IMG/VR virus record: IMGVR_UViG_3300043418_000072
Location: 231,362 to 295,361 of that record
Length of the DNA stretch: 64,000 nt
Strand: one strand, 5' to 3'
Source: a virus
Position 1 is the first letter of the stretch. Each line of letters opens with the position of its first letter. Under the pieces are notes generated by a model. The model was not told the DNA's origin, searched no databases, and saw only the letters and a list, made by a program, of their open reading frames with translations. Shown here piece by piece: positions 37,220 to 55,846 of the stretch. Made by a program: the position numbers and the translations under genes.

Positions 37220-37456
37220 TTATTTGCCCCACATCATTAAAAATCGCCAGATCACCAACTCATACATGGTCTGGCCCTTCATATTGCGTACTCGGCCAAT
37301 ATGAAAGTAACTGGTCTTTTCGTTTTCTCGATCAGTAATCCAAGTCCAACAATCTTCTGCCCACGTGACAGAGAACAAGTAGCCAAAAAGCGTGAAATAC
37401 TTTGGCTCATTCTTGCATGGATATGTGTTGAAATACTCTCTTGCTCGTTCACTCAT
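37220..37456 (-). CDS. hypothetical protein
   Basis: 78-aa ORF. Confidence 0.35.
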   Translation of the reverse strand: MSERAREYFNTYPCKNEPKYFTLFGYLFSVTWAEDCWTWITDRENEKTSYFHIGRVRNMKGQTMYELVIWRFLMMWGK

Positions 37457-37896
37457 GCTAATCCCTCACCATCTTCACCGTTCCACATACGATCCAGAAT
37501 CTCCGGAGTAACCATTGTTATTCCACCGTGCGTGTCCATTGTCACTGCCCACTGGTCGCTGCTAGACTTCCTGGTCCGAGTTCTGCGAGTACCAGTAGAG
37601 ATTCCCAACACCTTACGCTCTTCTGTGGACAGTTTAGCTAGTGCTTCTTCTCTTACACGGGCAACACGCTCTTTTTCCAATCGAGCTGCAAGTTTCCTGG
37701 CTTCGGCTTCTTTGTGCGCCTTCCACCACTCACGCAATTTGTCGTTCTTGAGCAACAAGAGGTCGGCCATACCATTTGCTTCAAGTTCTTCCATTGCCTC
37801 AACAGCAAACTTTTCAAACTTTGATTTGACTGGGCTCCGATCGAACCCGCCCCACTCAACGTCATCATCTTCATTCTCAATATCCCATGATTTCAT
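37453..37896 (-). CDS. hypothetical charged coiled-coil protein
   Basis: 147 aa; a run of minus-strand ORFs with stop/start overlaps, preferred over the Ser-rich antisense ORF 37301..38218. Confidence 0.4.
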   Translation of the reverse strand: MKSWDIENEDDDVEWGGFDRSPVKSKFEKFAVEAMEELEANGMADLLLLKNDKLREWWKAHKEAEARKLAARLEKERVARVREEALAKLSTEERKVLGISTGTRRTRTRKSSSDQWAVTMDTHGGITMVTPEILDRMWNGEDGEGLA

Positions 37897-37899
37897 CGT

Positions 37900-38124
37900 T
37901 TACTCCGCTAATGTGAACAAGAGGAACAAGTCCCGATGTTCGTGTTCAAATGGATTTCGCATGCCGACTGCTAGGTATCCAAATCGTGTATCCATATCGA
38001 TTGTGTCTTGTCCTTTGATCTTGGCTTTGCCGCTAATGGATTCTAGCTCAATGCCATCAGGTAGTTGCTCAAACTCTTTTTCTGTAAAGAGATACAACCT
38101 TGTTTCTGCGTCCCACAAAATCAT
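37900..38124 (-). CDS. hypothetical protein
   Basis: 74-aa ORF. Confidence 0.35.
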   Translation of the reverse strand: MILWDAETRLYLFTEKEFEQLPDGIELESISGKAKIKGQDTIDMDTRFGYLAVGMRNPFEHEHRDLFLLFTLAE

Positions 38125-38337
38125 TTTAATTCCTTATCGGAGGGGTCTTATTGACGTTGCCCCTACGCACACTGCGGGGTTACCCGTGAAGCCAAATCAA
38201 ATCTTCAAGTATGGTTAGCAGATATTCGTCAGACTTTGAATCAAACTCTGCAAACACATGATCTGCACCATGGCTATCTACAAATTCGTCTTCGCCGCCT
38301 ACCAACTCTCTCATTCGGTTAATTACTAGTTCACGCA

Positions 38338-39048: not shown

Positions 39049-40077
39049 TTAGTTAGGCTTCATGCAAGTGGTACGAGCCATTGCAGTCCAGTTATTAGGA
39101 AAGCTCTTGCGCAAGTCTGCAATCTTAAGAGCCATGCGCAAACTCATTTCACGCAACTTGTTCTTGTTAGCGTCCATGAAATCAATGATCTCATCTTGGG
39201 CAATCTGATCAAACTCGTAGTCTGCAAACAACTCGCCATCTGCTGCAATTTGACGGATGCGAAGCATCTTGTCACGCATGGTATCCAGTGTCAAGTCCAG
39301 ATAATGACAGCGTGATTGCAGTGCATCAAGGTGATCACGGAGCTTCTGGCTCTTCATAGTGTCAAACTTCAAGTTGGTGATAAAAATCACAGAACCGTTG
39401 AAGTTAAAGCTGTCTGGGATACCTTCGCGGCGCAGAGCACTTGACTCGCTCAACCAAGAAATCTTACGCTTCTTGCCCGAGTCCAATGCACCTTTCAGCA
39501 AGTTAAGCGACACGTCATCAAGCAAGATGCCGTCGCAGTCATCAAACACCAGCACACAATTTGCGTCACTGTACTTGTACAGAGTTTGGTACAAGCCGAT
39601 TGGGGTAGCAGAGCCCTTAACAACTTCTGCACGGAGACGATTGCCTGCAATTTGATCTAGCAGTGTTGCCTTTTCAATTTCTTGCTCAACACCGTAGCTC
39701 TTACCAACGCCAGGAGGGCCGCTAACAATCATAGCACGAATGTCGCCGTTGGTTGCAGCCTTAGTCATCTCGTGCAAGATTTCAAAGCGCTCGCGGATAC
39801 GTGTAATTGCTTCCTCATCAGATTCTACAACTACCTCTGCATGGGCTTGCACTGCGGCAACGCCTGCATCACCTTCAGTCACAAACTCGTAATCAAACGG
39901 ACCAGTGACCTTGATGCGAATGTCTTCCGGAAAGCCAGGAAAAGCACCACCATTTTTAACAGTAACGTAACCACCTTTGGCGCTGGTCTTAAACTGCTCT
40001 ACAAGCTCAAATGTTTGACCTGAGACATCAGTGGTACGATAGGCGCCGCTGCGGATACGAACAAAACTGTTTGACAT
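39049..40077 (-). CDS. AAA+ ATPase
   Basis: 342 aa; Walker A VSGPPGVGKS, Walker B VLVFDDCDG; a consensus promoter lies upstream. Confidence 0.65.
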   Translation of the reverse strand: MSNSFVRIRSGAYRTTDVSGQTFELVEQFKTSAKGGYVTVKNGGAFPGFPEDIRIKVTGPFDYEFVTEGDAGVAAVQAHAEVVVESDEEAITRIRERFEILHEMTKAATNGDIRAMIVSGPPGVGKSYGVEQEIEKATLLDQIAGNRLRAEVVKGSATPIGLYQTLYKYSDANCVLVFDDCDGILLDDVSLNLLKGALDSGKKRKISWLSESSALRREGIPDSFNFNGSVIFITNLKFDTMKSQKLRDHLDALQSRCHYLDLTLDTMRDKMLRIRQIAADGELFADYEFDQIAQDEIIDFMDANKNKLREMSLRMALKIADLRKSFPNNWTAMARTTCMKPN

Positions 40078-40106
40078 GCTTTTTCCTTTTTGCTGTTTAA
40101 GTGTGT

Positions 40107-40135
40107 ATTATACGATGGATTTCATTTCGGGTCAA
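40107..40135 (-). promoter_or_regulatory. Consensus sigma70 promoter TTGACC-17-TATAAT
   Basis: Minus strand: TTGACCCGAAATGAAATCCATCGTATAAT. Confidence 0.7.
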
Positions 40136-40141
40136 CCGAAA

Positions 40142-40423
40142 TTACATGCTCCAATAAGTTTCGCTAGCAGGGTTGCAGCACCAAGGAGTGTCATGTGCAA
40201 TTTCCACATCCTTGCCAGTCATCAAGTTCTTTACTACTTTAGTAGTAGAAACATACTCGATACGATACTGATCTACAGTATACATTCCCGAAAGCAAGAG
40301 CTCAGCAACTTCGCGCTTGATGCCTGCTTCGTCGCGGTGCCAAACAGTGGTACTAACCAAACGTTCGCCAGTTTTGCAACGACGATCCAGTTTGTAGATG
40401 TACATGGTGTAAGATTGCTTCAT
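40142..40423 (-). CDS. hypothetical protein
   Basis: 93 aa; a promoter and an AGGAG ribosome-binding site lie upstream. Confidence 0.45.
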   Translation of the reverse strand: MKQSYTMYIYKLDRRCKTGERLVSTTVWHRDEAGIKREVAELLLSGMYTVDQYRIEYVSTTKVVKNLMTGKDVEIAHDTPWCCNPASETYWSM

Positions 40424-40453
40424 ACCAACTCCTGTTTTGCTTGCTATGTATCT

Positions 40454-40482
40454 ATTATACTGCTTCTGCCATTTTCGGGCAA
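40454..40482 (-). promoter_or_regulatory. sigma70-type promoter TTGCCC-17-TATAAT
   Basis: Minus strand: TTGCCCGAAAATGGCAGAAGCAGTATAAT followed by AGGAGTTGGTATG. Confidence 0.6.
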
Positions 40483-40605
40483 ATTGAGTCTAATACTTGT
40501 TGTGTAAAAACAACACCACCATACGCTTGCTGGTACGTGTCTGCAACAGATTTCAAGAAGAAAGTGTAAACTTTGCCCTTGCTAGTGATTAGCGTGTACT
40601 TCATT
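40456..40605 (-). CDS. small ORF (49 aa) behind its own promoter, not in supplied track
   Basis: Hand-translated MKYTLITSKGKVYTFFLKSVADTYQQAYGG...; the next promoter is embedded in its 3' end. Confidence 0.3.
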
Positions 40606-40614
40606 GAAAAAGCC

Positions 40615-40643
40615 CTGTTTGCTGCAATACATGTATTATAGCA
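40615..40643 (-). promoter_or_regulatory. sigma70-type promoter TTGCCC-17-TATAAT
   Basis: Minus strand: TTGCCCAATAAAGGCCCTTTTGCTATAAT. Confidence 0.6.
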
Positions 40644-40669
40644 AAAGGGCCTTTATTGGGCAACCAAAA

Positions 40670-41668
40670 TTATGTTGCTGCGGCCCAGAATTTGCTATGT
40701 CTTGCAAGCCATTCCATTACCGGGAGCACCAGCTCAGGACTGTGTTGTGTAATCTGCTGCATCACAAACGGCATATGGTGGTGTGCTTCTGCACGTTCAC
40801 CTAGCTCGTACAAGAAATGATGCCATTTATGTATGTTCCACCCTTTGTAGTCCATCCTAGGAATAAAATAATCAACTACGTCCAAGTCAGCCAACTTAAC
40901 CACATTCCATTGTCCGTGAAATCCAAATCCCGGTTTGTATTCATATGAGCCTTCTTGTATCTCGTGACTAAACTGCTGTGCCAATTCGGTTGGAGCAAAT
41001 TTAATACCGTACTTGCTTTCTAAGAGCTGCTTATGGTCAACACACTGGACTGCGTCTTCTTCAATGAACTTACGTTGTTCGTGCAACTGAATTGCAGGAT
41101 CCTTGCAGGCCAATAAGAGTTTACGTGAGCGTAGAGAGAACCCACCGTTACCCATGTTTTGGCCTTCGGGAGCCCATGGCCAAACTGCACCAATGTAATC
41201 ATACTCAAGAAACTGATCGGACCACTTGGTACCGTCGTATGCCATTGCATCCCACTGTGCAAACAAGATATGGTCAGTGTCAATGAACGGCCACATGTTT
41301 TTAAGCATAATCTCGTTGTAGTCCCTAAAGCTCTTAATAGGCTTGGTAAGCACTGTTGTGCTGCCGGGTAGGATCTCCCTGTCACTGAATACTACAACTT
41401 CCTTAACGTCAATGTGTTTAAGAGTTTCCTCTAATGCACGACGAGCTAAGTCGTGGTACATGGTTTCCACCGTGACTAACGTGATGCTTTTACTCATAAC
41501 TCTTCTCTTCAGTAATGCTGCTACCGCAGATGGTGTTGATTGCTTTCTTAATAGCTGCACGTTTGTCGTTTTTAAGATACACCTGCCTAGCTGCATTAAC
41601 AAACTCGTCGTTAAACAACTGCTTCTTTTCACATGCACGTTTAAAGTCTTCGATGTCCCACAGCTCAT
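40670..41668 (-). CDS. putative glycosyltransferase-like protein (first gene of sugar cluster)
   Basis: 332-aa ORF heading the sugar-gene run; no diagnostic motif found, so the functional call is weak. Confidence 0.3.
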   Translation of the reverse strand: MSCGTSKTLNVHVKRSSCLTTSLLMQLGRCILKTTNVQLLRKQSTPSAVAALLKRRVMSKSITLVTVETMYHDLARRALEETLKHIDVKEVVVFSDREILPGSTTVLTKPIKSFRDYNEIMLKNMWPFIDTDHILFAQWDAMAYDGTKWSDQFLEYDYIGAVWPWAPEGQNMGNGGFSLRSRKLLLACKDPAIQLHEQRKFIEEDAVQCVDHKQLLESKYGIKFAPTELAQQFSHEIQEGSYEYKPGFGFHGQWNVVKLADLDVVDYFIPRMDYKGWNIHKWHHFLYELGERAEAHHHMPFVMQQITQHSPELVLPVMEWLARHSKFWAAAT

Positions 41669-41864
41669 TGTTAATGGCTTTTAGTTCAGCCACATGACTA
41701 TCTACGTCAGGTAGTGATAGTTCATTTAGCGATACATAGAGATGATACAGTTCAGTCTTAACATTTTCCAACTTAGTTGCATCCTTGATACGCTCACTTT
41801 TGATCTGGAGAATTGTAATCTTGTCAAGTAGTTCGCCGATACTGACCGGAATAGACACGATCAT
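41490..41864 (-). CDS. hypothetical coiled-coil protein
   Basis: 124 aa; the true start is probably internal because it overlaps the previous gene. Confidence 0.3.
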   Translation of the reverse strand: MIVSIPVSIGELLDKITILQIKSERIKDATKLENVKTELYHLYVSLNELSLPDVDSHVAELKAINNELWDIEDFKRACEKKQLFNDEFVNAARQVYLKNDKRAAIKKAINTICGSSITEEKSYE

Positions 41865-42748
41865 AATTGTTTAACTACTGCGTCCACGATTGCAGCAATA
41901 TCCCATAATTTATTACAAGCGTAGTCGCTGCGCTCGCATACAATTTGTCGAACTGGGCGTTGTTGTCTAGCATGACATCCAACACATGGCACACTGGCTT
42001 GAATGACTGTGCAGTTATCTCCCATTACTCCGTTTCGGAATGGCAGCACACGGTCTGGATACATGTGGCTTAGTAATGCCACAATGTGTGTTTCACTTGC
42101 TCCAGCAATGTGGAATGGTGCTGAGTCAATGCCTACAAAGCACTTGGCACTATCCATTAGGTAACACGTTGATCCTGCGTCAAGGCCTCTAGCATCAATG
42201 ACTCTAGGATTACCTTCGGGTGCATAATCAGTTGGGCCACCTGTACACACAATCTTAACAGAAGGATCTGCTGCAAGGATTTTGTTAATAACGTCTATCC
42301 ACACTTCCACTGCAATGTTTTTCAATTCCCAGTGCCAACGGCGCATATGAATTACAACAAATGGACTGTCAATTGATGCAACAAGTTTATCAACTTCTGC
42401 AACTTGCGCATCTCCGATGAATAATTCCATACTCTTGTCCATGTTTGTGTTACCAAACACACGATAGAAGTAATTGTCAACAAAATGACCATCCGGGTTA
42501 TACTCGTATGTGTCATCTAAGTTATAGAACACATCGTATACTGCTGCATCAACTTCGGTGTCTGTGTGGATCACATTACGCACATGAGGATTGTGTTTGA
42601 ACACTTGTGGATACTCAGTATGCACATCAATCACACAGTTGTCACCGTACATGTTTTTTAGTTCACGCACAACTCCTGTGGTAATAATCACATCACCGAG
42701 TGCTGCTCGGCGGCGCAGTAGGATCCCAATCGGCACTTCTAGTTTCAT
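41861..42748 (-). CDS. GT9-family glycosyltransferase (ADP-heptose:LPS heptosyltransferase-like)
   Basis: 295 aa; the N-terminus RAALGDVIITTGVVRELK resembles heptosyltransferase starts, and a C-terminal GIDSAPFHIAGA-type segment is present. Confidence 0.5.
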   Translation of the reverse strand: MKLEVPIGILLRRRAALGDVIITTGVVRELKNMYGDNCVIDVHTEYPQVFKHNPHVRNVIHTDTEVDAAVYDVFYNLDDTYEYNPDGHFVDNYFYRVFGNTNMDKSMELFIGDAQVAEVDKLVASIDSPFVVIHMRRWHWELKNIAVEVWIDVINKILAADPSVKIVCTGGPTDYAPEGNPRVIDARGLDAGSTCYLMDSAKCFVGIDSAPFHIAGASETHIVALLSHMYPDRVLPFRNGVMGDNCTVIQASVPCVGCHARQQRPVRQIVCERSDYACNKLWDIAAIVDAVVKQL

Positions 42749-43971
42749 TGTTCTATCTCCACTTTGGGGAAATATTTAACATATCGGTCTCCGCGATTGT
42801 TACGCTTCTGTTGAATACGGGTGCGAATCTCTTCGTAGAAATTCCATGCCAGCGGTATAAAGATAATTGTATCATCTTCGCCGAACTGATCCAAGTAGTC
42901 AATTGGCACAATAGGAATATTTGCACCGGGGCTGTACAGACCTTGCTTCAGAGGATTGTCATCAATGATGGCTTCCAGCTCGAGTCCACTAAACTGTAGC
43001 AGAGTATTGCCTTTGGCTGCTGCTCCATATCCAATAGCTCTATAGCCGTACTTTTCTACGTATACTTCAACACTCCCGACTAATTCTTCTACTAGCTCTT
43101 TAGCATTAAACGCCCAACGGTTGTAAGTGTCTGCTGTTAGCAGTCCTTTACTGGCTTCGCTTGCAATCAAGTTCTTGATGTGCCCGGGACGTTGTTTGTC
43201 TTTGCTAACAATAAAGATATAGCTTGTGCCATGGATAGGGCACTTGACCACATCCTCTAGATACAGTCCAGCACGTTTGCACAACTCATTCATGCTGTTG
43301 ATGTTATAGAAGTTTACATGCTCGTGATAGATAGTATCAAACTCGTTGTTTACAACCATATCAGCTTGGCTTGTCTGGATAAAGAACTTGCTGCCATTAC
43401 GCATCAATCTCTTGATGTTCTTCATGTAAGTTAGTGGATCCGGATTGTGAGCAAAGCTGTTCTGCGCTGTAATGATGTCAAAGAATATTTCGTCCTTAGA
43501 TAGTTGTTCAGTTAACGTTGAGCTAAAGAAGTCGCAGTAGATATTGTGATTCTTGCTGCTAACAGGATACAGGTTTTCAGCAGGGTCAACACCGGTAGTT
43601 CTCAATCCCAACTGTTTGAAGTAATCCAATTGTGTACCGTCATTGCAACCAATATCCAATACCGTCATTGGATAGTTACCCATGTACTCAACTGCAAACT
43701 TAGAGAACCACTCAAAGTGATCGCGCCCAGTTTTACTTGTTCCGCTTACGTAGAGATAGTGTGTGTAAATTAGTGCAGGGTCAACTGCGTGAGTCAATTG
43801 CAAATGATTGCAGTGCTCGCATCTGTTAACTGCCAACGGGAACTTTGGCTCATCAACTTGTAAATTATCAATACAGTTGTTTGCGAGAGCTTGGGTTCCT
43901 AGGTCTAGTTCAAGCGTTAGATGGCTACTGCCGCAAGCGAGACAGGCATCAATTGATTTGCAAGATGTCAT
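42745..43971 (-). CDS. SAM-dependent sugar C-methyltransferase (TylCIII/NDP-hexose C3-methyltransferase type) with N-terminal zinc ribbon
   Basis: 408 aa; N-terminal CLACGS...CEHCNHLQ zinc ribbon, class I SAM-methyltransferase motif VLDIGCNDGTQL, and a C-terminal C-methyltransferase-type domain. Confidence 0.6.
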   Translation of the reverse strand: MTSCKSIDACLACGSSHLTLELDLGTQALANNCIDNLQVDEPKFPLAVNRCEHCNHLQLTHAVDPALIYTHYLYVSGTSKTGRDHFEWFSKFAVEYMGNYPMTVLDIGCNDGTQLDYFKQLGLRTTGVDPAENLYPVSSKNHNIYCDFFSSTLTEQLSKDEIFFDIITAQNSFAHNPDPLTYMKNIKRLMRNGSKFFIQTSQADMVVNNEFDTIYHEHVNFYNINSMNELCKRAGLYLEDVVKCPIHGTSYIFIVSKDKQRPGHIKNLIASEASKGLLTADTYNRWAFNAKELVEELVGSVEVYVEKYGYRAIGYGAAAKGNTLLQFSGLELEAIIDDNPLKQGLYSPGANIPIVPIDYLDQFGEDDTIIFIPLAWNFYEEIRTRIQQKRNNRGDRYVKYFPKVEIEQ

Positions 43972-44693
43972 TATTCGGTTCTGTAGTTAGAAGAAGGATA
44001 TTCGTTGTTGTAGTGGAAGCTAGGGTCTCCCTTACCGTGACTTGAGTGTATGGTTACTTGCAGAGGTTTTCCACTGCCAATCCATGCCTCGTGCTCAAAT
44101 CTAAAGTTACCCGGATCTAGTTTAACTCCCGGCAAGTATAAACTTTCCTTGCCCCACTCAATTGTAGCAGGGTCTGACAATTTACGCAAGCGACGGATGT
44201 AGTTATTGGTTGTCCACCAAAAGTTGCCCGAGAAGTGGGGAAACGGATGGTCTAACCAGTTAACTCCAACTACGTCAACCCCTTTAGACAATTCGTCGAG
44301 AGATTTTTCCCATTGCTCGATTGCCCAGTATGTTAGATAGTTGCGCCAATCCGCAGCCTTTTGGTCTGCAACATTTTCTCTGCTGAGTCCTTTAAGGTGT
44401 GCGTAACCAATTGTGTACTCGTCTTCACTAGAATCAGCATCCTGCTTGATTTTATTGATAGTAGGCCATTCCCACTTAGTGGCATCACCATGGACTTGCA
44501 CTGCTGTAAATTTAGGATTAGAGTTAAGGATGGGCAACAAGAACATTTCCATATTACTCTTAACGCCGTTTAAGCAGAAGATGATTTCGTCTGCGCGATT
44601 GATTAAGCCGCTGTTGTCCATTTTCTCTAGCATCTCAACTAGAACTGATTGCCAACCAGTTAATTCCGGTACGTGTAAATAAAATTTAATCAT
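43971..44693 (-). CDS. hypothetical protein in sugar cluster
   Basis: 240-aa ORF. Confidence 0.4.
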   Translation of the reverse strand: MIKFYLHVPELTGWQSVLVEMLEKMDNSGLINRADEIIFCLNGVKSNMEMFLLPILNSNPKFTAVQVHGDATKWEWPTINKIKQDADSSEDEYTIGYAHLKGLSRENVADQKAADWRNYLTYWAIEQWEKSLDELSKGVDVVGVNWLDHPFPHFSGNFWWTTNNYIRRLRKLSDPATIEWGKESLYLPGVKLDPGNFRFEHEAWIGSGKPLQVTIHSSHGKGDPSFHYNNEYPSSNYRTE

Positions 44694-45469
44694 GATTTGT
44701 AAACTCCGGGTGCGTTTGTAACGTTGCTACGTTTTTTAATTAGTTCGATCACATCTGGATCGTTTACTTGGTCGCCGTACGGTGCAAATAATGCTTTACC
44801 GCGTGGGTCTGCGTTTGTCAATGGCTCAGTAACATAATATGCTGCTAGGCTACAACGAATACTGCCATCTGGGCAGTTGAGTTCTTTTGGTAAACCGTGC
44901 CATGAATTTTGTGTGGTATCAAAAATTACAGCCCTGTTAAAACGATTTTCAACAGTAGTTACACATTGTCTAGGGCCACCAGTTTCTTCGTTGTGATCCC
45001 AAATCTCTAGGCCGCCGCCCCATGCAGTATCCCATTCAGGACTGATGTAAATGATGATGTTGAGCTTGCGTTGTAATTCCAATTTGGGATGAATACTATA
45101 GTCCAAGTGGATGTTGTTCTTGCCACCCTTAGTGTGGGCGTGCCATCCGCCGCCGTGTAGGCCAGCATCTGCTGCAAGGTTAGGATCGCTTAATATCTGT
45201 TGTAGATAGAACGTAAATGCCTCACCAGTTAGGTAGGAAAATGCCTTGTATGTGGTTGCAGGAAAGTTGTCCCAACGATTACATGCTTTCTTATCTTCAA
45301 GTGCATTGTGATAGTGGGCGTTCCATACTGCACTGTCGTACGATGGAAATTCTGCAACCAATTGTTTAGCAACATCATCTGTAAAGAAGTCGTCAATTAC
45401 TGCATAGTTAAACGGCTTGGCATTTAGAAAATTTCTCTGGATTTGATTCCAGTTGTGATTGTTTATCAT
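44690..45469 (-). CDS. 2OG-Fe(II) oxygenase
   Basis: 259 aa; the HxD...H facial triad (NIHLDYSIH ... NSWHG) and WGGGLEIWD match the PF13640-type fold. Confidence 0.5.
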   Translation of the reverse strand: MINNHNWNQIQRNFLNAKPFNYAVIDDFFTDDVAKQLVAEFPSYDSAVWNAHYHNALEDKKACNRWDNFPATTYKAFSYLTGEAFTFYLQQILSDPNLAADAGLHGGGWHAHTKGGKNNIHLDYSIHPKLELQRKLNIIIYISPEWDTAWGGGLEIWDHNEETGGPRQCVTTVENRFNRAVIFDTTQNSWHGLPKELNCPDGSIRCSLAAYYVTEPLTNADPRGKALFAPYGDQVNDPDVIELIKKRSNVTNAPGVYKS

Positions 45470-46179
45470 TAGTTTTTAATATATGAACCGTTAGGTGCAA
45501 TGGCCCCTTCTACGCCAACTTGATCTACTTCCACTACATGAGCAGGGTTGAGGAATTTAGCAAGCACATGCTCAATGTCTGTGTAGCCACCATTTGTAAC
45601 TCGTTCGTTGAAGTGTGCAAAACTGTAGTCGTATACGCTAATGACTTCGTCTAGTAGTGCAATAGGCCACGACCATAGTCGTGCCATGTATTGCCAAGGC
45701 TGCTGCGTTACCTCAACAGGGAATTGACTCTTATGCTTACGCCCGATAATGATTTTGTCTGCTTCAGTTTTGTATAACTCAGGATCAAACAAGTCATTGA
45801 TTACGTAACGACCCGACATCTTGTGGATACGATCAATGCCCGCAAACTCGCCGTCTTCTTTAAGCAATTTCAGTGCTTGACCGAAGCACATGATCTCAGT
45901 ACCATTCTTTACCACATCCCAGTTGTCTGTACTGTGATAAAGTTTCTGAACCTCTGCTTCATCTGTGAAGTCCAAGAACACATCGCATACGCTAGACAAG
46001 ATTGCAGTCTGTTCTGCTGTAACAGGAACTCCTGTTACCTCCATAATAACAATCTTAGCATCCGGAACATGCTTGCGAATACTAGCAACGGTAGTCACTG
46101 TTTGCTCTAGCCGCTCAATTGGAGAGTATACCCCAAAGCGGCTGTTAACTGCGCTGGTTACAATAAAGCAGTGTTTCAT
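45469..46179 (-). CDS. hypothetical protein in sugar cluster
   Basis: 236-aa ORF with an abutting start/stop. Confidence 0.4.
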   Translation of the reverse strand: MKHCFIVTSAVNSRFGVYSPIERLEQTVTTVASIRKHVPDAKIVIMEVTGVPVTAEQTAILSSVCDVFLDFTDEAEVQKLYHSTDNWDVVKNGTEIMCFGQALKLLKEDGEFAGIDRIHKMSGRYVINDLFDPELYKTEADKIIIGRKHKSQFPVEVTQQPWQYMARLWSWPIALLDEVISVYDYSFAHFNERVTNGGYTDIEHVLAKFLNPAHVVEVDQVGVEGAIAPNGSYIKN

Positions 46180-47219
46180 TTACGCAACCAGCGGTTATTT
46201 GCTAAGGTCCACTCAACTACTTCCTTAACACGTTCGCTAAGTTTGATCTTAGGAGTCCATCCTAGCTCTGCTAGTAATCCGCCATCAAGTGCATAACGTA
46301 GATCGTGCCCAGGGCGGCTGCTGTGGAAGTCAGTCATTTCGTACACCAACTCGTTACCAACTGCTGCTGCAATCATTTTAGCAAGGGTAAGGTTATCAAT
46401 TTCTTCTGGTCCAACAAGATTAAACTTAGGACATTTAGCACCACCATAATCACCTGTGTGCGTATAGTCTTTGAGATTTTCAAGGATAAACATTAAGCCA
46501 TCTGCTACATCCTTGGCATGGATATAGTGACGTGACCCTGCAATGGTCTTGCTTGGGTCGCTATGAACTGTTACTACTTCACCGTCGCGGGCTTTTTGTA
46601 TTACCATTGGGATAAACTTCTCAGGATGCTGACGTTCGCCAAACACGTTCATAGTGTGTGTAACTACGATAGGAAGTTTGTAAGTGTTTTCAAATGCAAC
46701 ACAAATTTCCTCAGCTGCGGCCTTACTTGCAGAGTATGGGTTGGTGCTATTGTAGCGATCGTATTCTTTGTAGCTAACGCCGTTTGGTGCTGGACCAAAC
46801 ACTTCGTCTGTTGAGAAATATACAAAGCGATCAAGATTTGGCAGAGTGCGGGCATACTGCAAGAGATTGGTTGTGCCCACAACGTTATCCATTACAAACT
46901 CCATAGGGAATTCAATAGAACGATCCACGTGTGAACCAGCAGCCAAGTGCAACACAATGTTCACATCACCAATCATACTAGTAGTCAATGGATTAATCTC
47001 TGCTTTAAGATCATGCCACACAATGCGTAGGCGTTTACGCTGGTCCGGTGCAATCTCTTCCATCATGTCATGCAAACGGTTTAGATTGCCCGAATAGTCT
47101 AAACGATCTAAGCTAACAATATTCCAATCTGTAGTTTTTAGGATGCGCTCAATAACGTGATGAGCAATGAAACCGGCTCCGCCGGTGATAAGTACGGTCT
47201 TTGACAAGTAATTCTCCAA
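46176..47219 (-). CDS. rmlB: dTDP-glucose 4,6-dehydratase (extended SDR)
   Basis: 347 aa; Rossmann VLITGGAGFIAHHV, catalytic YSASKAAAE (YxxxK), and the RmlB-like FGERQHPEKFIPMVI. Confidence 0.8.
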   Translation of the reverse strand: MENYLSKTVLITGGAGFIAHHVIERILKTTDWNIVSLDRLDYSGNLNRLHDMMEEIAPDQRKRLRIVWHDLKAEINPLTTSMIGDVNIVLHLAAGSHVDRSIEFPMEFVMDNVVGTTNLLQYARTLPNLDRFVYFSTDEVFGPAPNGVSYKEYDRYNSTNPYSASKAAAEEICVAFENTYKLPIVVTHTMNVFGERQHPEKFIPMVIQKARDGEVVTVHSDPSKTIAGSRHYIHAKDVADGLMFILENLKDYTHTGDYGGAKCPKFNLVGPEEIDNLTLAKMIAAAVGNELVYEMTDFHSSRPGHDLRYALDGGLLAELGWTPKIKLSERVKEVVEWTLANNRWLRK

Positions 47220-47304
47220 TGATAGTTGATAATGTATTTATTTTAGCTATTTTACAAGAGTCAACTTTTAAAAGCAAGAGCAAGACCACCGAATAAATAT
47301 TTGT

Positions 47305-48060
47305 ATGAAAATTGTAATTGTAACCGGTGGGTTTGATCCTATCCATAGTGGGCATATTGCCTATCTTAAAGCAGCAAGTCAACTCGGCGATATCTTAGTC
47401 GTTGGACTAAACAGTGACGATTGGCTACAACGTAAAAAGGGTGCAGCATTTATGCCTTGGGACGAACGGTATGCTATTGTAAGCAAGATCAAGTATGTTA
47501 ATCAAACCACTTATTGGGATGACAGCGACGGTAGTGCCATTAAGTTGCTAGAAGAGTTTAAAGCACAATATCCTAACGATGAAATCATCTTTGCCAATGG
47601 TGGAGATAGAACACAAGACAACATTCCCGAAATGTCAGTTACCGGTGTAGAGTTTGTGTTTGGTGTTGGTGGTGAGAATAAGGCCAACAGTTCAAGCTGG
47701 ATTCTACAAGAATGGAAAGCACCTAAAACTGAACGCCCATGGGGTTACTACCGAGTCCTGCATGATGTACCGGGTACCAAGGTTAAAGAACTAACCATCA
47801 ATCCAGGGCAAAGTCTCAGTCTACAAAGGCATCAGCACCGTGCAGAATATTGGCACGTTAGCGAAGGACAATGTATTGCCGAGCAGCAAATGGAAAATGG
47901 ATACCATATGCCAGCTCAACAATTAAGCGAACACATGAGTATCCATATACCCAAAGACGGATGGCATCAATTGCACAATCCGTTTACTGCACCGTGTCGC
48001 ATTGTAGAGATACAATACGGCAAACACTGCACCGAAGAAGATATTGAGCGTAGAGATTAA
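47305..48060 (+). CDS. Bifunctional cytidylyltransferase-like nucleotidyltransferase fused to cupin domain (HldE/RfaE domain-II-like + sugar isomerase/epimerase-like)
   Basis: 251 aa; the N-terminal HIGH-type motif GGFDPIHSGHIAYL is typical of cytidylyltransferase-fold sugar-1-P nucleotidyltransferases; the C-terminal 110 aa has a cupin-like pattern. Confidence 0.55.
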   Translation: MKIVIVTGGFDPIHSGHIAYLKAASQLGDILVVGLNSDDWLQRKKGAAFMPWDERYAIVSKIKYVNQTTYWDDSDGSAIKLLEEFKAQYPNDEIIFANGGDRTQDNIPEMSVTGVEFVFGVGGENKANSSSWILQEWKAPKTERPWGYYRVLHDVPGTKVKELTINPGQSLSLQRHQHRAEYWHVSEGQCIAEQQMENGYHMPAQQLSEHMSIHIPKDGWHQLHNPFTAPCRIVEIQYGKHCTEEDIERRD

Positions 48061-48221
48061 TCTTGGTCGTCGGCTGTGATCTTTTGACCCAGCTGCGATT
48101 TAAGAGATCGCATCAGCTTGCGTTCAGTATCGTACACAAATTCTTTTGTTTCGTCTTCGGTATGCACGATAAGGATAAAGCCGTTTGCTGCTTTGCGGAT
48201 TTCAATTGATTCAAACATTAA
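48057..48221 (-). CDS. small hypothetical protein (start trimmed to Met after promoter)
   Basis: MFESIEIRKAANGF...; the supplied ORF 48057..48290 extends upstream through a promoter and terminator, so an internal Met start is more plausible. Confidence 0.3.
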   Translation of the reverse strand, partial: LMFESIEIRKAANGFILIVHTEDETKEFVYDTERKLMRSLKSQLGQKITADDQD

Positions 48222-48249
48222 AGTATTCCATTGGGTTAGTTGAACTACT

Positions 48250-48278
48250 ATTATAGCAGAGCATGAAAGTATAGTCAA
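48250..48278 (-). promoter_or_regulatory. Consensus sigma70 promoter TTGACT-17-TATAAT
   Basis: Minus strand: TTGACTATACTTTCATGCTCTGCTATAAT. Confidence 0.65.
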
Positions 48279-48300
48279 GAAAAAGCCCACCGAAGTGGGC
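48279..48300 (-). terminator. Rho-independent terminator downstream of dCMP deaminase/tRNA unit
   Basis: Minus strand: GCCCAC-TTCG-GTGGGC followed by TTTTTCTT. Confidence 0.65.
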
Positions 48301-48303
48301 TAG

Positions 48304-48777
48304 TTATTCTTCAATTTGTGTAACTGTTATGCCCGAACTCCTTAGGAATTGGACTCCTGCATCATCGCGATAGTTTGCACCATAAAATACACGACGAATG
48401 CCTGACTGAAAAATGAGCTTGGCACAGTGGATACAAGGACTGTGAGTAACAAATAAGTCAGCCCCGTTGCCAACGTTAGGAGACTTCGCCAGTTTTGCAA
48501 TAGCGTTTGATTCAGCATGTAATACCTCAGGTCGTGTTACTAATCTAGTTGTATCTTCTTCAATGGCATAGGTTTGTTTGTTAACAACCTTGGGATGTTC
48601 TTCACAGTTGTTATCCCATCCCGCCGGCATGCCATTGTATCCGTAAATAACCACATCGTCTTTGACAATAACTGCCCCTACCTTGAGCCTACGTGCATGA
48701 CTTAGTTCAGCTGCACGATGTGCCCAGTCCATATATAGTTGTTGATATTTTGTTTTCATAAATGGCAAACCCCGCAC
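48304..48777 (-). CDS. dCMP deaminase
   Basis: 157 aa; zinc-binding HAESNAI...PCIHCAKLI matches the CMP/dCMP deaminase H(A/C)E...PCxxC signature. Confidence 0.8.
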   Translation of the reverse strand: MRGLPFMKTKYQQLYMDWAHRAAELSHARRLKVGAVIVKDDVVIYGYNGMPAGWDNNCEEHPKVVNKQTYAIEEDTTRLVTRPEVLHAESNAIAKLAKSPNVGNGADLFVTHSPCIHCAKLIFQSGIRRVFYGANYRDDAGVQFLRSSGITVTQIEE

Positions 48778-48794: not shown

Positions 48795-48868
48795 TGGAGC
48801 GGGATAGCGGAATCGAACCGCTGACTTGAACTTGGAAGGATCTCGTTTTACCATTAAACTAATCCCGC
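48795..48868 (-). tRNA. tRNA-Gly (anticodon TCC, tentative)
   Basis: Hand-folded: acceptor GCGGGAT/ATCCCGC, T-arm AGCGG-TTCGATT-CCGCT, CCA encoded, anticodon loop CTTCCAA; the anticodon stem has 2 mismatches; overall similar to T4-type tRNA-Gly. Confidence 0.55.
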
Positions 48869-48876
48869 ATTTCCTT

Positions 48877-48951
48877 TGGTACCTTGTGACGGTTTCGAAC
48901 CGCCGACCCTCTCCGTGTAAAGGAGACGCTCTACCCCTGAGCTAACAAGGC
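48877..48951 (-). tRNA. tRNA-Val (TAC)
   Basis: Acceptor GCCTTGT/ACAAGGT, D-arm TAGCTCAGGGGTAGAGC, anticodon stem TCTCC/GGAGA with loop TTTACAC, T-loop TTCGAAA, CCA encoded. Confidence 0.7.
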
Positions 48952-48957
48952 ATGTAT

Positions 48958-49032
48958 TGGTTGCAAAGGCCGGAATCGAACCAACTGTCTCCAGGTTATG
49001 AGCCTGGTGAGATACCATTTCTCTACTCTGCT
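48958..49032 (-). tRNA. tRNA-Met or tRNA-Ile2 (anticodon CAT)
   Basis: Anticodon stem CCAGG/CCTGG with loop CTCATAA, D stem GAGA/TCTC, T-loop TTCGATT, CCA encoded; the 1:72 pair is mismatched, which is initiator-like. Confidence 0.6.
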
Positions 49033-49039
49033 TCAATAT

Positions 49040-49606
49040 TTATACCAGTTGCTCTGCTTGTAGCAAAGAAACTGTGTCTGCATCCAACTCAATTGATGTC
49101 TGAACATTGAGTTCCAACACCCGATCGTTGATGCTTTGTTTTTGTTTCTTCAGGTCACGCATTTCTGCTTTGTAACCTTCAATCTGGCCTGCTTCAAGCA
49201 CGCCAGTATCAACTGTGTCGTTGTAACCGTAAATGCGGCTATTTTTGTCCTGTGTACGAAGCTTCTCTAGCTTGCCTTCAATGACTTCTGTAGCTTCAAC
49301 TACCTTGCTTTCAGTTAGGCCTTTCAAGAAGCCCAGACGCTTGTCAATGAATGCTGCGTCTGTCAGCAAGTCTGCAACACCAGCTTCTGTGTTGGCGCGA
49401 CCAACCTTTGCACGGATGCCGTACAATGCTCGAGTCAACTGTGTGCGCTTGGCATCATTGCGGACCAGTGCGTCACGTGCTGTAGTCAGCACCGAAGTGG
49501 TGCTTTGGAACTCGTTAAGGGAAACTGTCAATGCGATGTCGATCGTCTTGATGTGTTCCTGGATTGTGTTTTGTAGGGCGTTTGCTTTGCGAAGTGTAAA
49601 TTTCAT
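49040..49606 (-). CDS. hypothetical coiled-coil protein
   Basis: 188-aa ORF. Confidence 0.4.
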   Translation of the reverse strand: MKFTLRKANALQNTIQEHIKTIDIALTVSLNEFQSTTSVLTTARDALVRNDAKRTQLTRALYGIRAKVGRANTEAGVADLLTDAAFIDKRLGFLKGLTESKVVEATEVIEGKLEKLRTQDKNSRIYGYNDTVDTGVLEAGQIEGYKAEMRDLKKQKQSINDRVLELNVQTSIELDADTVSLLQAEQLV

Positions 49607-50408
49607 AATCGAGTTCCTTTCTGTTTGAATTTAATAGGGGGGTAACGTATGGCAAGTCAATTGCGGGACAATGTGCAATGTACATTAGATAGAGTCGATT
49701 TTCAAGGCAACCTTTTTCTAAAGCAAAATACAACAAGCAGAGGATACCAATATTGCCGAGCATCAATAAACAAGCAACTTAATGCCATTTCATCTCGGAG
49801 CACTGGATCACGATTGTATATTCCAGTAAGCGTTTCAAGTGCTAACTAGATGTGCAATCTCTCATCTCCACACGCTACAGCTAGTTTTGAGAAACTAGCA
49901 AAAATGGAGGACGGTGTAGGAGTTTAACCTACCTTATACCGAGTTTGCAATCCGGCGCATAAACGCTCTGCCAACCGTCCATAAATCTTATATGTAAACA
50001 CACTAACACGGCTACCACACCTTACGATGCCCTGTGACCGCACTCCAGGTTAGATAATGTGTTTGCATATAAGTGGAGGACTGAGAATACATCTCTCCCA
50101 ACAACACCTCGGACATTATTACGATCCTTGCGAGACCGCTTTCTTCCGACTTCCACTAAACCCTACTTGCATAGTAGTCTAGTCTGCTGTCAGCATCGCC
50201 GTTTTTAAAGACAGGCAGTAGTCTTGTCGCCATATGCTATTCTACGCTTTCTATCCCGTTGACCTTTAGAGCCATTCACCACCGCTAAGTAGCTACGAAA
50301 CTTCCTGCATAAACAGATTTCACCTTGCGAGTTACGTCTGACTTAGTTAGCTTGCGCCCTAAGTATTAGATGCTTTTCACATATGACCGAGTCAGTCTTT
50401 GCGTTTTG

Positions 50409-50480
50409 TAATGATAGCGGGAATTGAACCCGCCGCATTCTGTTTAAGAGACAGACGTTCTACCAATGAACTATATCAAC
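50409..50480 (-). tRNA. tRNA-Lys (CTT)
   Basis: D stem GTTC/GAAC, anticodon stem TCTGT/ACAGA with loop CTCTTAA, T-arm GCGGG-TTCAATT-CCCGC; one T:T mismatch in the acceptor stem. Confidence 0.5.
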
Positions 50481-50989
50481 CTACTGCGATGTGCTGACTC
50501 AGTTGCTGCATACTCTTTTGGAATACACAATACAACACACCACGTACCTTTTGCCTTGCGAGCTACTCAGTCGTCTTTTGCGACCAATGTTCGTATTACT
50601 ACGTCCACCAACCACTAAAACTGCATACGAGCTCTTAGGTGCAACCCTTCGAACCAATACACTACCCTTTCTCATACCAATTAACAAAGTTGGTTTCGCA
50701 TAGAAGTCAGCACCACCTGTTACTTTCCATCTACTCAAGTTCCCCTTGATGCAATCTCAGGCTTGTAAGCAAACGTTCTTCCCTATGCACTTTGCGTCAC
50801 TGTTACAACCACCCGTCGCTGAGTGATCGCTCCCTCACAGGAGTGAGCAGGCTTGTCTAAACGAACTATTGCTAGCGGAGTTATGTAGGCATACCTCCTT
50901 TGGCTGTGTCACCACAGTTATTCTTCGCATCAAGCTGGGCGAACCATACTCTTTGCAGGACATTAAACTGCCCCAAATTCTTATACAAC

Positions 50990-51065
50990 TGCACACTCAC
51001 AGGATTCGAACCTGCGACCCGGGCAATAGCCCGAGCTATGATCCAACCATATCAGCGTGGCCTAC
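50990..51065 (-). tRNA. tRNA-like element with canonical T-arm (cloverleaf not resolved by hand)
   Basis: GCAGG-TTCGAAT-CCTGT T-arm on the minus strand, but no complementary acceptor stem was found. Confidence 0.25.
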
Positions 51066-51151
51066 GCCTTTATGTGCATGTGTATAAGAACTTCTTATAC
51101 GTATCTATTTTAAAGAACTTGCTTGTTAGCACTATCACTAACTAAGCTGCT

Positions 51152-51180
51152 ATTGTAGCAAACTTTTCATTTGCTGTCAA
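51152..51180 (-). promoter_or_regulatory. sigma70 promoter TTGACA-17-TACAAT inside non-coding stretch
   Basis: Minus strand: TTGACAGCAAATGAAAAGTTTGCTACAAT. Confidence 0.6.
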
Positions 51181-51516
51181 CAGTTATTTAGAAATTTATT
51201 TTGATGCCTCTTTCGCCTGCTTACAAGGCTACGGGTAAGACTTGCGTCTTTTGGTTGACCCTCATGCAACCAGCGGAGCGTTACTCTACTTTATTGCAAT
51301 CCTTCTTCCTGCGTATTGCTACGTGGAATAGATCGTTTCTAACTCATAGGTGTTAGACGCCACTGTAGTCTCTTACAAACTACACAAGAGTGCCCAGCTT
51401 TCTTTCTGGACCAAATTTTCAACAAGACTCACGCAACCTAATAGCGTGGTAGGCCTGTTTACTTTACATCAAAACAAATTTTTAAAGAACGTTTGTTAAT
51501 TGCTTAACATGTATCT

Positions 51517-51545
51517 ATTATAACAAGAGTTTCATTAAGTGTCAA
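51517..51545 (-). promoter_or_regulatory. Consensus sigma70 promoter TTGACA-17-TATAAT firing into ORF-free region
   Basis: Minus strand: TTGACACTTAATGAAACTCTTGTTATAAT followed by the conserved AGATACAT motif. Confidence 0.7.
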
Positions 51546-51574
51546 GTACTTTTAGAAAAACTTAAAATAATAAA

Positions 51575-51658
51575 TGGTGCGTAAGGAGAGACTCGAACTC
51601 TCAATCCTCGCGGCGCTGGCTTCTAAGACCAGAGTGTATACCATTCCACCACTTACGC
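51575..51658 (-). tRNA. tRNA-Leu (TAG), long variable arm
   Basis: Acceptor GCGTAAG/CTTACGC, anticodon stem CTGGT/GCCAG with loop CTTAGAA, 13-nt variable arm, T-arm GAGAG-TTCGAGT-CTCTC, CCA encoded. Confidence 0.65.
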
Positions 51659-51669
51659 ATTGTGATAAA

Positions 51670-52845: not shown

Positions 52846-53473
52846 AAGTTAATACCAAATGATCTGCAAACCAATCTCTGCAATAGGCAAAGGGTTTACC
52901 AAATCTAAGGTTAAACCAAATTCGTTCGTTTGTATTTGAGATGCTGTGTAGTTGTTGGATATCAAGGATCCATCCTGTGTCTTTTACACTACGATAGGAT
53001 TCGCAGATGTCTGCGTTTCTTGCGTAGGTAGTGCTGTCACAATCAGCGAAGAAATAATTAAACCCAGTTTGCTGACTTTCGTGATCCTTATGCTCTGCAC
53101 CATCGCCTACCATGTAGTTAATGCTAGCAAAAGTAGGACCAAGCTCTGCAAGATCATCTAGCATCATTGGCAAAAAGCGCATGGTAGATTCAATTAGCTT
53201 GCCTGTTACTGAATACCATTCTGCACTACCATTAGTAATGTGACTAACTGTGCCCGATGATCCTAGCTCATAGTGATATCCGTAATCACTGTATTTGTAT
53301 TCCCTAGTAATACCAGTTGATTGACTCTTTACTAGATCAATGCAGTGCTTTGCCACTTGAGCTGTTTTATCCCAGTTATTAACTATACGCACTGGGGTTT
53401 GAAACGTTAATGTATTCATAAAAGGGTTAGCCATGTAATTCTGTTTTTCAACCGCGGACCACTTGGTCCCCAT
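52838..53473 (-). CDS. hypothetical protein co-transcribed with radical SAM gene
   Basis: 211 aa; its start overlaps the radical-SAM stop; an internal Met start (MANPF) is possible. Confidence 0.4.
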   Translation of the reverse strand: MGTKWSAVEKQNYMANPFMNTLTFQTPVRIVNNWDKTAQVAKHCIDLVKSQSTGITREYKYSDYGYHYELGSSGTVSHITNGSAEWYSVTGKLIESTMRFLPMMLDDLAELGPTFASINYMVGDGAEHKDHESQQTGFNYFFADCDSTTYARNADICESYRSVKDTGWILDIQQLHSISNTNERIWFNLRFGKPFAYCRDWFADHLVLTYE

Positions 53474-53729: not shown

Positions 53730-53743
53730 TAAATATTGAACAA

Positions 53744-55754: not shown

Positions 55755-55767
55755 TTATGTACTTATG

Positions 55768-55842: not shown

Positions 55843-55846
55843 AAAT

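Follow-up and report, generated by a model that had tools for sequence, protein, structure and literature searches.

A putative glycan-assembly island, resident and diversifying at a fixed locus of uncultured jumbo phages

Multi-gene glycan clusters have been noted in large phages for twenty years, and to our knowledge the target has been demonstrated for none of them. Those of the large cyanomyoviruses P-SSM2, S-SCSM1, and S-SCSM2R are labelled as lipopolysaccharide (LPS) or cell wall synthesis and modification genes, with a putative target (PMC12801897). Here we describe an island of nine genes, numbered g1 to g9 by coordinate, at positions 40670 to 48060 of a 64,000-nucleotide stretch of viral DNA (positions 231,362 to 295,361 of IMG/VR record IMGVR_UViG_3300043418_000072), referred to below as the window. 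Its kind is not new: as in other large phages, several glycosyltransferases and nucleoside diphosphate (NDP)-sugar enzymes are clustered, and they are conserved among relatives. In our reading the island is resident in a jumbo phage and diversifying, and assembles a glycan for which we favour a protein acceptor, most likely virion protein; we put the probability of this reading at about one half. With the cyanomyovirus clusters it shares the setting of a large lytic phage and a combination of many glycosyltransferases with TagD-like cytidylyltransferases and with NDP-sugar epimerases or dehydratases, and one freshwater cyanophage, S-SRM01, shares actual homologs with it. It differs from them in lineage, the nearest cultured relatives of its DnaB helicase being the PA5oct-like and Atu_ph07 jumbo phages (∼45% identity), and in having a fixed slot, a near-constant pair of g7 and a GT9-like gene, a swappable periphery, and a putative sugar 3-C-methyltransferase.

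The fibril glycosylation clusters of the Mimiviridae comprise the 4,6-dehydratase R141, the aminotransferase L136, and adjacent glycosyltransferases. They resemble the island in the production of rare 6-deoxy or amino sugars by the virus through an RmlB-like dehydratase, in several soluble transferases, in a content that varies between clades, and in cytoplasmic glycosylation independent of host machinery, which we propose for the island. Unlike the island, whose acceptor is conjectural, they belong to a eukaryotic virus and not to a bacteriophage, and we know of no C-methyltransferase or GT9 enzyme in giant-virus clusters. In mycobacteriophages, as Freeman et al. 2023 are reported in PMC12619734, soluble phage glycosyltransferases glycosylate phage proteins in the cytoplasm, with two to four transferases beside capsid and tail genes and with host sugar nucleotides as donors. 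This is the mode of action proposed here; in contrast, the island has nine genes with sugar-modifying enzymes of its own, lies far from structural genes, and is as yet a system of genes only.

Eight of the nine genes are tightly packed on the minus strand, with overlapping or abutting start and stop codons and the transcription order g8, g7, g6, g5, g4, g3, g2, g1; g9 is divergent on the plus strand. The original prediction, made without database searches, had placed an RmlB dehydratase, a C-methyltransferase, a GT9-like protein, a 2-oxoglutarate (2OG) oxygenase, and a nucleotidyltransferase-cupin fusion here, in seven or eight contiguous genes. All of these lie where it put them, with strong statistics, and the cluster proteins do not resolve to unrelated functions. 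The genes are indeed contiguous, but they number nine, a DUF6165 gene having been missed, and the nucleotidyltransferase-cupin gene is on the opposite strand. The exact g7 and g3 proteins are also recorded on a 354,098-bp JGI contig, and the window is part of an uncultured jumbo phage genome of at least 354 kb. Its gene content is phage-like, with a pectate-lyase-type tailspike and a 1192-aa tail-fibre protein (both with Mtd_N domains), a LysM protein, DnaB-like and SF2 helicases, a primase, a GIY-YIG endonuclease, and 16 tRNAs. No nucleotide match to the cluster came from a megablast search of 50,697 phage records. The moraphage lineage, which has four core glycosyltransferase groups (PMC12619734), was considered for this phage, and that paper offers no basis for identity.

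Related phages carry an island in the same slot. The closest, L001 (a 320,767-bp IMG/VR contig), has the whole cluster in the same order at 89 to 99% amino acid identity. In L002, L018 to L022, and L024, an island lies between a dCMP-deaminase/p77 side and a GGACT/AAA/DEAD-helicase side. On the first side of the window slot are p77, a small membrane protein that is 59 to 68% identical in relatives, and a dCMP deaminase (48304 to 48777, minus strand; PF00383, 2.3e-23; PHROG 174, 2e-49), which has the same island-adjacent position in L018 and L019; it is a conserved flank, outside the pathway. On the other side is an AAA ATPase (39049 to 40077, minus strand), 73 to 80% identical in these relatives and always downstream of the island.

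The content of the slot changes from one relative to the next. L002 and L018 have a GT17-like gene, RmlB, g7, the C-methyltransferase, GT9, an FkbM methyltransferase, and extra short-chain dehydrogenase/reductase (SDR) genes, to which L002 adds a GT34-like gene, a split transketolase-like enzyme, and Methyltransf_24; L020 is as L002 with DegT and further SDRs. In L021, RmlB and the C-methyltransferase are missing and g7-like, GT9, and FkbM genes are kept; additional genes there are NeuB, DegT, a HAD phosphatase, a thiamine pyrophosphate (TPP) enzyme, and a dehydroquinate (DHQ)-synthase-like gene. The L024 island consists of a UDP-galactopyranose mutase (GLF), RmlB, g7, two DUF8361 genes, the C-methyltransferase, and a GT4-type transferase, without GT9. 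L022, whose g5 is 43% identical, has the series RmlB-g7-2OG-DUF8361-GT9-C-methyltransferase-DUF5672, and a 211-kb contig (g5, 37% identical) has these seven together with DUF6165, the same nucleotidyltransferase-cupin fusion, DegT, and an SDR. All nine window families are thus found together in the 211-kb contig, and seven in L022; their association at large evolutionary distance argues for a functional module. The most constant member is g7, usually accompanied by the GT9-like gene (which L024 alone lacks among six examined island variants), RmlB, and the C-methyltransferase, while the tailoring genes are swapped. As an observation apart, GroEL lies directly downstream of the island in L002 (13928 to 15544) and GroES/GroEL in L018 (14513 to 16441); the window has neither at this position.

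The same comparisons bear on whether the cluster could be a recently acquired host O-antigen or capsule fragment, a passenger "moron" with no phage-specific role. RmlB, C-methyltransferase, GT9, and cupin families are indeed typical of bacterial surface-polysaccharide loci. Against such an origin, however, the GC content of the cluster matches that of the window (0.433 versus 0.435), and its codon usage is indistinguishable from that of other phage genes (r of 0.89 versus a within-genome baseline of 0.85). The gene arrangement is compact, with start codons that overlap stop codons; the cluster is conserved in L001, and the module recurs in relatives with orthologs that are 37 to 55% identical. 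In addition, a scan of 185,579 representative bacterial genomes with the two most conserved g7 peptides gave 39 pattern matches, none of which encodes a relative (exact patterns only, which distant bacterial homologs could escape). We consider a recent host origin highly improbable; the island is a resident, diversifying module, and the possibility raised at the outset, of a host fragment absent from related phages, does not fit what is found in them.

Two genes of the island are predicted to make a branched sugar. g8 (46176 to 47219, minus strand, 347 aa) is an extended SDR resembling RmlB. It matches dTDP-glucose 4,6-dehydratases/RmlB structures over its full length (1g1a, 1.8e-47), and its translation retains GxxGxxG in "TGGAGFIAHH," Thr-Asp-Glu in "FSTDEVFG," and YxxxK in "YSASKA." It scores 241 bits with TIGR01181, below the equivalog cut-off of 365, and much lower with models for CDP-glucose dehydratase (87), GDP-mannose dehydratase (50), and heptose epimerase (54); orthologs in relatives are 75 to 84% identical. 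Also among its matches is PDB entry 6vlo, a putative dTDP-glucose 4,6-dehydratase that we take to be Mimivirus R141. We assign g8 as an NDP-hexose 4,6-dehydratase by homology and motifs.

g4 (42745 to 43971, minus strand, 408 aa) has the Methyltransf_13, Methyltransf_23, and Methyltransf_14 domains (PF08421, 2.6e-13; PF13489, 5.4e-21; PF08484, 1.3e-27) of the NDP-4-keto-6-deoxyhexose 3-C-methyltransferases (TylC3/MtmC/TcaB9 family). It matches MtmC (4rv9, 3.8e-61), TcaB9 (1.3e-47), and KijD1-type (1e-45) structures end to end, residues 4 to 385 aligning with MtmC and 8 to 406 with TcaB9. The predicted zinc ligands C10/C13 and C51/C54 correspond in the alignment to the CxxC pairs of MtmC and TcaB9, and the motif Y215-x-E217-H218, in EFDTIYHEHVNFY, aligns with EFDTIYHEHLSYI of MtmC and SFDQIYDEHFFLF of TcaB9; we take the Tyr-x-Glu-His active-site motif to be Y222/E224/H225 of TcaB9. 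With the architecture and active-site residues kept, g4 appears to be a bona fide sugar C-3 methyltransferase. The suggestion that a C-methyl sugar would be unusual for a phage is borne out: homologs occur in 6 of the 50,697 phage records, at 24 to 31% identity, and DSL-LC02 (27%) is the only cultured phage with one.

In the textbook route to a 3-C-methyl-6-deoxyhexose nucleotide, a C-methyltransferase acts after a dehydratase. This two-step logic is shared with the actinomycete TylC3/MtmC/TcaB9/KijD1 pathways, in which SAM-dependent C-3 methylation of the 4-keto sugar nucleotide follows 4,6-dehydration; unlike the products of those pathways, that of the island would be transferred by GT9-like or GT-A enzymes, not by a natural-product GT1. 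No 2,3-dehydratase, 3-ketoreductase, aminotransferase, or 4-ketoreductase was found in the window, so the substrate is probably a simple 4-keto-6-deoxyhexose and not a 2,6-dideoxy or 3-amino sugar.

g9 (47305 to 48060, plus strand, 251 aa) is a fusion of CTP_transf_like (1.5e-13) and MannoseP_isomer (5.2e-23) domains. The N-terminal domain contains a "GGFDPIHSGH" motif and matches ECT (1.1e-12) and TagD (6e-10) structures, rfaE_dom_II (64 bits), and PHROG 7878 (1e-24); the C-terminal domain carries the "RPWGYY" and HxH cupin motifs of type II phosphomannose isomerases (GMP_PMI, 73 bits). The sequence thus points to an HxGH nucleotidyltransferase of the TagD/ECT/RfaE-II type and not to an RmlA-type hexose-1-phosphate nucleotidyltransferase. 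The gene is an accessory member, absent from L002, L018, L020, L021, L022, and L024. Because most relatives with the dehydratase and C-methyltransferase lack g9, and indeed any nucleotidyltransferase in the island, it is unlikely to feed the dehydratase, and the starting NDP-hexose is presumably made by the host. The proposed activation by a nucleotidyltransferase accordingly stands as to the presence of such an enzyme but not as to its place upstream of the dehydratase; the broader claim, of a phage nucleotide-sugar pathway with several transferases for a branched C-methyl deoxysugar, is upheld by the gene-by-gene predictions.

Four genes are candidates for transfer. g7 (45469 to 46179, minus strand, 236 aa) has no Pfam, NCBIfam, or PHROG match, and g5 (43971 to 44693, minus strand, 240 aa) had none in local libraries; relatives of g5 carry a precomputed match to PF27674 (DUF8361). 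Fold searches, as had been suggested for these two genes, assign both to the GT-A fold on modelled structures, with nucleotidyltransferases that share the fold scoring only slightly lower. Giant-virus glycosyltransferases and GT-A proteins are among the structural neighbours of g7. Its invariant residues include D88, D116, and D201-x-E203-H204, with no clear DxD; g5 has no invariant Asp. A g7 profile found 1513 matches in 1.84 billion representatives (∼1500 cluster representatives). Among them are natural fusions that support the reading of g7 as a transferase: TPR, GT41 (OGT-like), and g7 domains in P0402, DUF273/GT-A and g7 in P0459, and g7 and GT9-like in P0501. hhalign comparisons of g7 with g5 and with g1 gave probabilities below 1%, no detectable relation, and the idea of a common origin for the three GT-A-like genes was rejected in favour of separate families. 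Single-sequence PDB searches of g7, g5, g1, and g3 gave nothing meaningful.

g1 (40670 to 41497, minus strand, 275 aa; DUF5672, PF18922, 1.7e-18) is presumed to be glycosyltransferase-like. A longer ORF call, to 41668, had been taken as the gene; it shares 179 nt with g2 and looks low in complexity, and the plausible start is instead the ATG at 41497, which is preceded by the purine-rich ribosome-binding site GAAGAGAAGAG. An ortholog with 50% identity lies at the end of the L022 island, and another is in the 211-kb contig. g2 (41490 to 41864, minus strand, 124 aa; DUF6165, PF19662, 2.7e-13) has 45% identity to the S-SRM01 CDS that immediately precedes the RmlB-like gene of that phage, lies beside DegT and the nucleotidyltransferase-cupin gene in the 211-kb contig, and recurs in sugar clusters. 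We found nothing relevant to DUF5672 or DUF6165 in the literature.

g3 (41861 to 42748, minus strand, 295 aa) passes the Glyco_transf_9 (PF01075) cut-off of 22 bits by 0.1 bit (22.1). A profile built from 34 homologs matches the GT9 structures 3tov (5e-4) and WaaF 1psw (0.024), and its alignment to 3tov includes both the N-terminal "LGDVI" motif and the C-terminal motif GIDSGPFHIAGA ("DSGPFHIAGA"). These matches point to a distant GT9-like (GT-B) transferase. Four invariant cysteines (C255, C258, C271, and C278) suggest a C-terminal Cys4 metal finger, which prompted a comparison with TibC-type protein heptosyltransferases; no BAHT/TibC-type structure was among the PDB matches, and this identity is not supported.

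The kinship of g3 with LPS heptosyltransferases raises the prospect that the island instead remodels the host envelope. In the infected cell it would act on the cytoplasmic side of the inner membrane, with the LPS inner core or a different envelope glycolipid as its substrate, and would serve either to block superinfection or to prevent the loss of progeny on cell debris, a role long suggested for the cyanomyovirus clusters. The N-terminal domain of g9 scores best against the ADP-heptose-forming RfaE domain II, the comparable clusters of S-SCSM2R, S-SCSM1, and P-SSM2 have been read in terms of LPS or the cell wall (PMC12801897), and serotype conversion of the host surface would also give variability at the level of strains. 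On closer view, however, g3 is a very distant GT9: beyond its marginal Pfam score and its finger, it reaches no LPS heptosyltransferase equivalog, scoring 37.7 bits where 170 are required. For the cyanophages, too, this interpretation is putative. Serotype conversion is typical of temperate phages, whereas no integrase was seen in the window, and the nearest DnaB relatives are the jumbo phages named above. Lipid-carrier machinery is also absent: scans of the island found no flippase (Wzx), polymerase (Wzy), priming phosphoglycosyltransferase, ABC transporter, or ligase domains, and none of the nine proteins has a membrane segment (maximum 19-residue Kyte-Doolittle hydropathy below 1.6 in all nine). 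In this respect the island is unlike Wzx/Wzy- or ABC-dependent O-antigen and capsule loci, with their membrane machinery for priming, flipping, polymerization, and ligation. Since the g7 domain is moreover fused in nature to an OGT-like protein glycosyltransferase, we regard an envelope target as unlikely, though it ranks second after protein.

g6 (44690 to 45469, minus strand, 259 aa; 2OG-FeII_Oxy_3, 1.4e-14) is a predicted 2OG-Fe(II) oxygenase. Its best PDB match is OGFOD1 (8.9e-5), followed by prolyl 4-hydroxylases; OGFOD1 is a ribosomal prolyl hydroxylase. In Pfam it matched only 2OG-FeII_Oxy_3 and 2OG-FeII_Oxy_4, with no Tet_JBP match even at an E value of 10 or below. It lies between g7 and DUF8361 in L016, L022, and the 211-kb contig, and is thus flanked by two GT-A genes wherever it is found; L002, L018, L020, L021, and L024 lack it. 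The sequence matches suggest a prolyl-hydroxylase/OGFOD1-type oxygenase, and the gene is accessory to the island.

Two proteins encoded elsewhere in the window have features of possible substrates. The first is the 808-aa Ala-rich LysM protein (12003 to 14429), whose gene coincides with a local anomaly in GC content and AT skew, and which has three "ATPAPAATAQ"-type Pro/Thr/Ala repeats near residue 665; the repeats resemble the proline-rich repeats of viral prolyl-hydroxylase substrates, and by this analogy the protein is a possible substrate of g6. The second, a 377-aa protein (32906 to 34039) with a signal peptide, a TPR region, one transmembrane segment, a coiled coil, and C-terminal Ser-rich "SSSSW(D)" repeats, has in that Ser-rich tail a conceivable substrate for O-glycosylation. 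A second 2OG-Fe(II) oxygenase, fused to DUF6817, is encoded at 17241 to 18227, between the primase and the 1192-aa tail-fibre gene.

An oxygenase between two GT-A genes also recalls DNA hypermodification, in which g6 or an unseen enzyme would make a hydroxymethyl base and the transferases would glycosylate the hydroxymethyl-pyrimidines, shielding the genome from restriction or CRISPR. The island sits amid genes of nucleotide metabolism and replication, always adjoining a dCMP deaminase. According to Pyle et al. (10.1101/2023.12.21.572611), DNA-glycosylation pathways fall into two classes, one with ThyS and one with 5mYOX, and dCMP deaminase annotations are specifically associated with one or other of them; clusters of this kind also include heptose, Kdo, and cytidylyltransferase genes. 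The DNA glycan clusters (T-even glucosyl-hydroxymethylcytosine and those of Pyle et al.) likewise combine phage GT-A or GT-B enzymes with sugar-activating genes. The dCMP deaminase flank that had been offered as a hint of DNA modification is therefore real, but a partner gene is missing: no thymidylate-synthase-like, DNA C5-methyltransferase, TET/JBP, or TGT/DpdA domain was found in the scanned window ORFs (most of those of at least 150 aa and a few shorter, leaving out most small ORFs and six of 119 to 147 aa) or in the ∼20 kb around the island in six relatives. There is thus no source of hydroxymethyl-pyrimidine, whether a ThyS-like enzyme or a C5-methyltransferase with TET/JBP, among the scanned ORFs, unlike in the DNA glycan clusters. 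As judged from invariant residues, g5 and g7 lack the R...DDD...EDY/F motif of DNA-acting JGT-like GT-A enzymes, and the island transferases resemble neither these nor T4 beta-GT. g6 matches only prolyl-hydroxylase-type families and is missing from most island variants. Finally, four to six transferases, together with the O-methyltransferases, aminotransferases, and NeuB of relatives, far exceed any known DNA pathway; the four here, with those tailoring genes, look like oligosaccharide assembly and not like base decoration. DNA is the least likely of the targets considered and quite improbable on this evidence.

The predicted activities can be arranged in a pathway. g8 would convert an NDP-hexose to NDP-4-keto-6-deoxyhexose, and g4 would transfer a methyl group from S-adenosylmethionine (SAM) to C-3, giving a branched NDP-3-C-methyl-4-keto-6-deoxyhexose. 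MtmC is a bifunctional methyltransferase and 4-ketoreductase. Reduction of the 4-keto group could be carried out by g4 itself or by a host enzyme, or the keto sugar could be transferred as such. g9 probably supplies a second activated donor for another of the transferases; the simplest proposal is ADP-heptose for the GT9-like enzyme, and CDP-glycerol or an NDP-mannose-type sugar are alternative products. Its cupin domain could isomerise fructose 6-phosphate (F6P) to mannose 6-phosphate (M6P) or, speculatively, sedoheptulose 7-phosphate (S7P) to heptose 7-phosphate. The four soluble transferases g3, g7, g5, and g1 would then add sugars successively and directly onto a cytoplasmic acceptor, an arrangement suggested by the lack of membrane segments and of a flippase, polymerase, or priming transferase in the island. 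g6 may either hydroxylate the acceptor to create the attachment site or oxidise the sugar, for example from C-methyl to C-hydroxymethyl. Parallels for acceptor hydroxylation are the glycosylation of hydroxyproline in Skp1, the glycosylation of hydroxylysine in collagen, and the chlorovirus prolyl 4-hydroxylase (P4H). On virion protein, the outcome would be a strain-variable glycan coat comparable to giant-virus fibril glycans and to the glycans on mycobacteriophage capsids and tails.

Our tentative choice for the acceptor, falling a little short of an even bet, is protein, and virion protein most likely. Four observations argue for it. The g7 domain is fused in P0402 to a TPR-GT41 protein of the OGT type, which are protein O-glycosyltransferases; g6 is of the prolyl-hydroxylase type and lies between two GT-A genes; giant-virus glycosyltransferases are among the fold neighbours of g7, and the swapping of modules resembles that of giant-virus fibril glycosylation clusters; and the S-SRM01 cluster has a tail-fibre context. 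In that phage, the only cultured one with g7-like and DUF8361-like genes, the homologs of RmlB (66%), DUF6165, g7 (26%, with a fold TM score of 0.91), and DUF8361 (26%) occur with a sulfotransferase and a glycosyltransferase, and the cluster adjoins tail-fibre and TPR genes.

Several points weigh against a glycan-assembly island acting on virion protein. None of the data identifies the acceptor directly, and the P0402 argument is indirect: the fusion lies on a 4.7-kb contig (L023) of unassigned origin, beside a GT4-type gene. The island is not beside capsid or tail genes, unlike the mycobacteriophage transferases, and sits amid replication and nucleotide-metabolism genes, with the closest tail-fibre gene ∼19 kb away. 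The classical substrate of GT9 enzymes is the LPS inner core. The score of g8 below its equivalog cut-off leaves the nucleotide and the hexose unsettled, no 4-ketoreductase is encoded in the window, which leaves the final sugar undefined, and the 64 kb examined are part of a genome of at least 354 kb.

Further features lie around the island. In the 590-bp gap between it and the AAA gene (40107 to 40663) are three near-consensus sigma-70-like promoters on the minus strand (TTGCCC/TTGACC-N17-TATAAT); two of them each precede a small ORF within the gap (49 aa, and 93 aa at 40142 to 40423), and the third (40135 to 40107) precedes the AAA gene. Relatives carry GGACT and several small genes at this position. 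Two plus-strand ORFs were judged spurious: 40076 to 40507, which is 60% conserved in L001 versus more than 90% for its neighbours, and 37301 to 38218, which is Ser-rich and antisense to three minus-strand ORFs. On the opposite side, p77 (48057 to 48290, minus strand) converges with g9, with a 4-nt overlap. Just upstream of p77 are a strong promoter (48278 to 48250) and a terminator hairpin (48284 to 48301); as the promoter is on the minus strand, transcription from it would cross g9 in antisense before reaching g8.

Directly downstream of the dCMP deaminase, 16 tRNA genes, all on the minus strand, are spread in small groups among protein genes (48795 to 62243). Between them are two radical-SAM proteins and an FMN-type TIM-barrel oxidoreductase (NMO/IMPDH-like), encoded at 51670 to 52845, 59048 to 59944, and 60040 to 61248; one radical-SAM protein has a weak QueE-like PHROG match (7.6e-6). 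Several 230- to 400-aa proteins with no family match are encoded nearby (53744 to 59051), and no TGT/DpdA domain was seen among the scanned ORFs of this region. The radical-SAM/oxidoreductase group could be a separate modification pathway. Beyond it are an RF-1-domain protein (62346 to 62735), either an ArfB-like peptidyl-tRNA hydrolase or a release-factor fragment, and a dual-specificity phosphatase (63342 to 63917); PCRF/RF-1 genes also occur near the island slot in relatives (for example, L018, 1243 to 1914).

What is new here is the architecture found in an abundant clade of uncultured jumbo phages, a fixed slot with a near-constant core around which other genes are swapped, together with a recurrent candidate phage sugar C-3 methyltransferase, which would imply a branched sugar made by a virus. 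New too are the model-based assignment of DUF8361 and of the large Pfam-less g7 family to the GT-A fold, with fusions that tie g7 to GT9 and OGT-like enzymes, and the association of DUF5672 and DUF6165 with sugar chemistry. The fixed slot, the small near-constant core, and the freely exchanged tailoring genes point to diversifying selection on an exposed glycan. A fuller picture, possible if doubtful, is that a widespread uncultured clade of jumbo phages builds strain-specific glycan coats on its virion proteins, in the cytoplasm and through transferase families not recognised before (the g7 family, DUF8361, DUF5672, and the Cys4-finger GT9); the coats would contain a virus-made branched 3-C-methyl sugar, perhaps 3-C-hydroxymethyl through the 2OG oxygenase, and would be a phage counterpart of giant-virus fibril glycosylation, with serotype-like swapping of modules at a fixed locus. 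A sugar C-methyltransferase, otherwise from antibiotic and O-antigen pathways, appears as a recurrent phage gene, and the homologs in S-SRM01 make the question of the target tractable in a cultured phage. If the virions are glycosylated, this would bear on phage recognition, grazing, particle stickiness, and the evasion of defences in natural waters.

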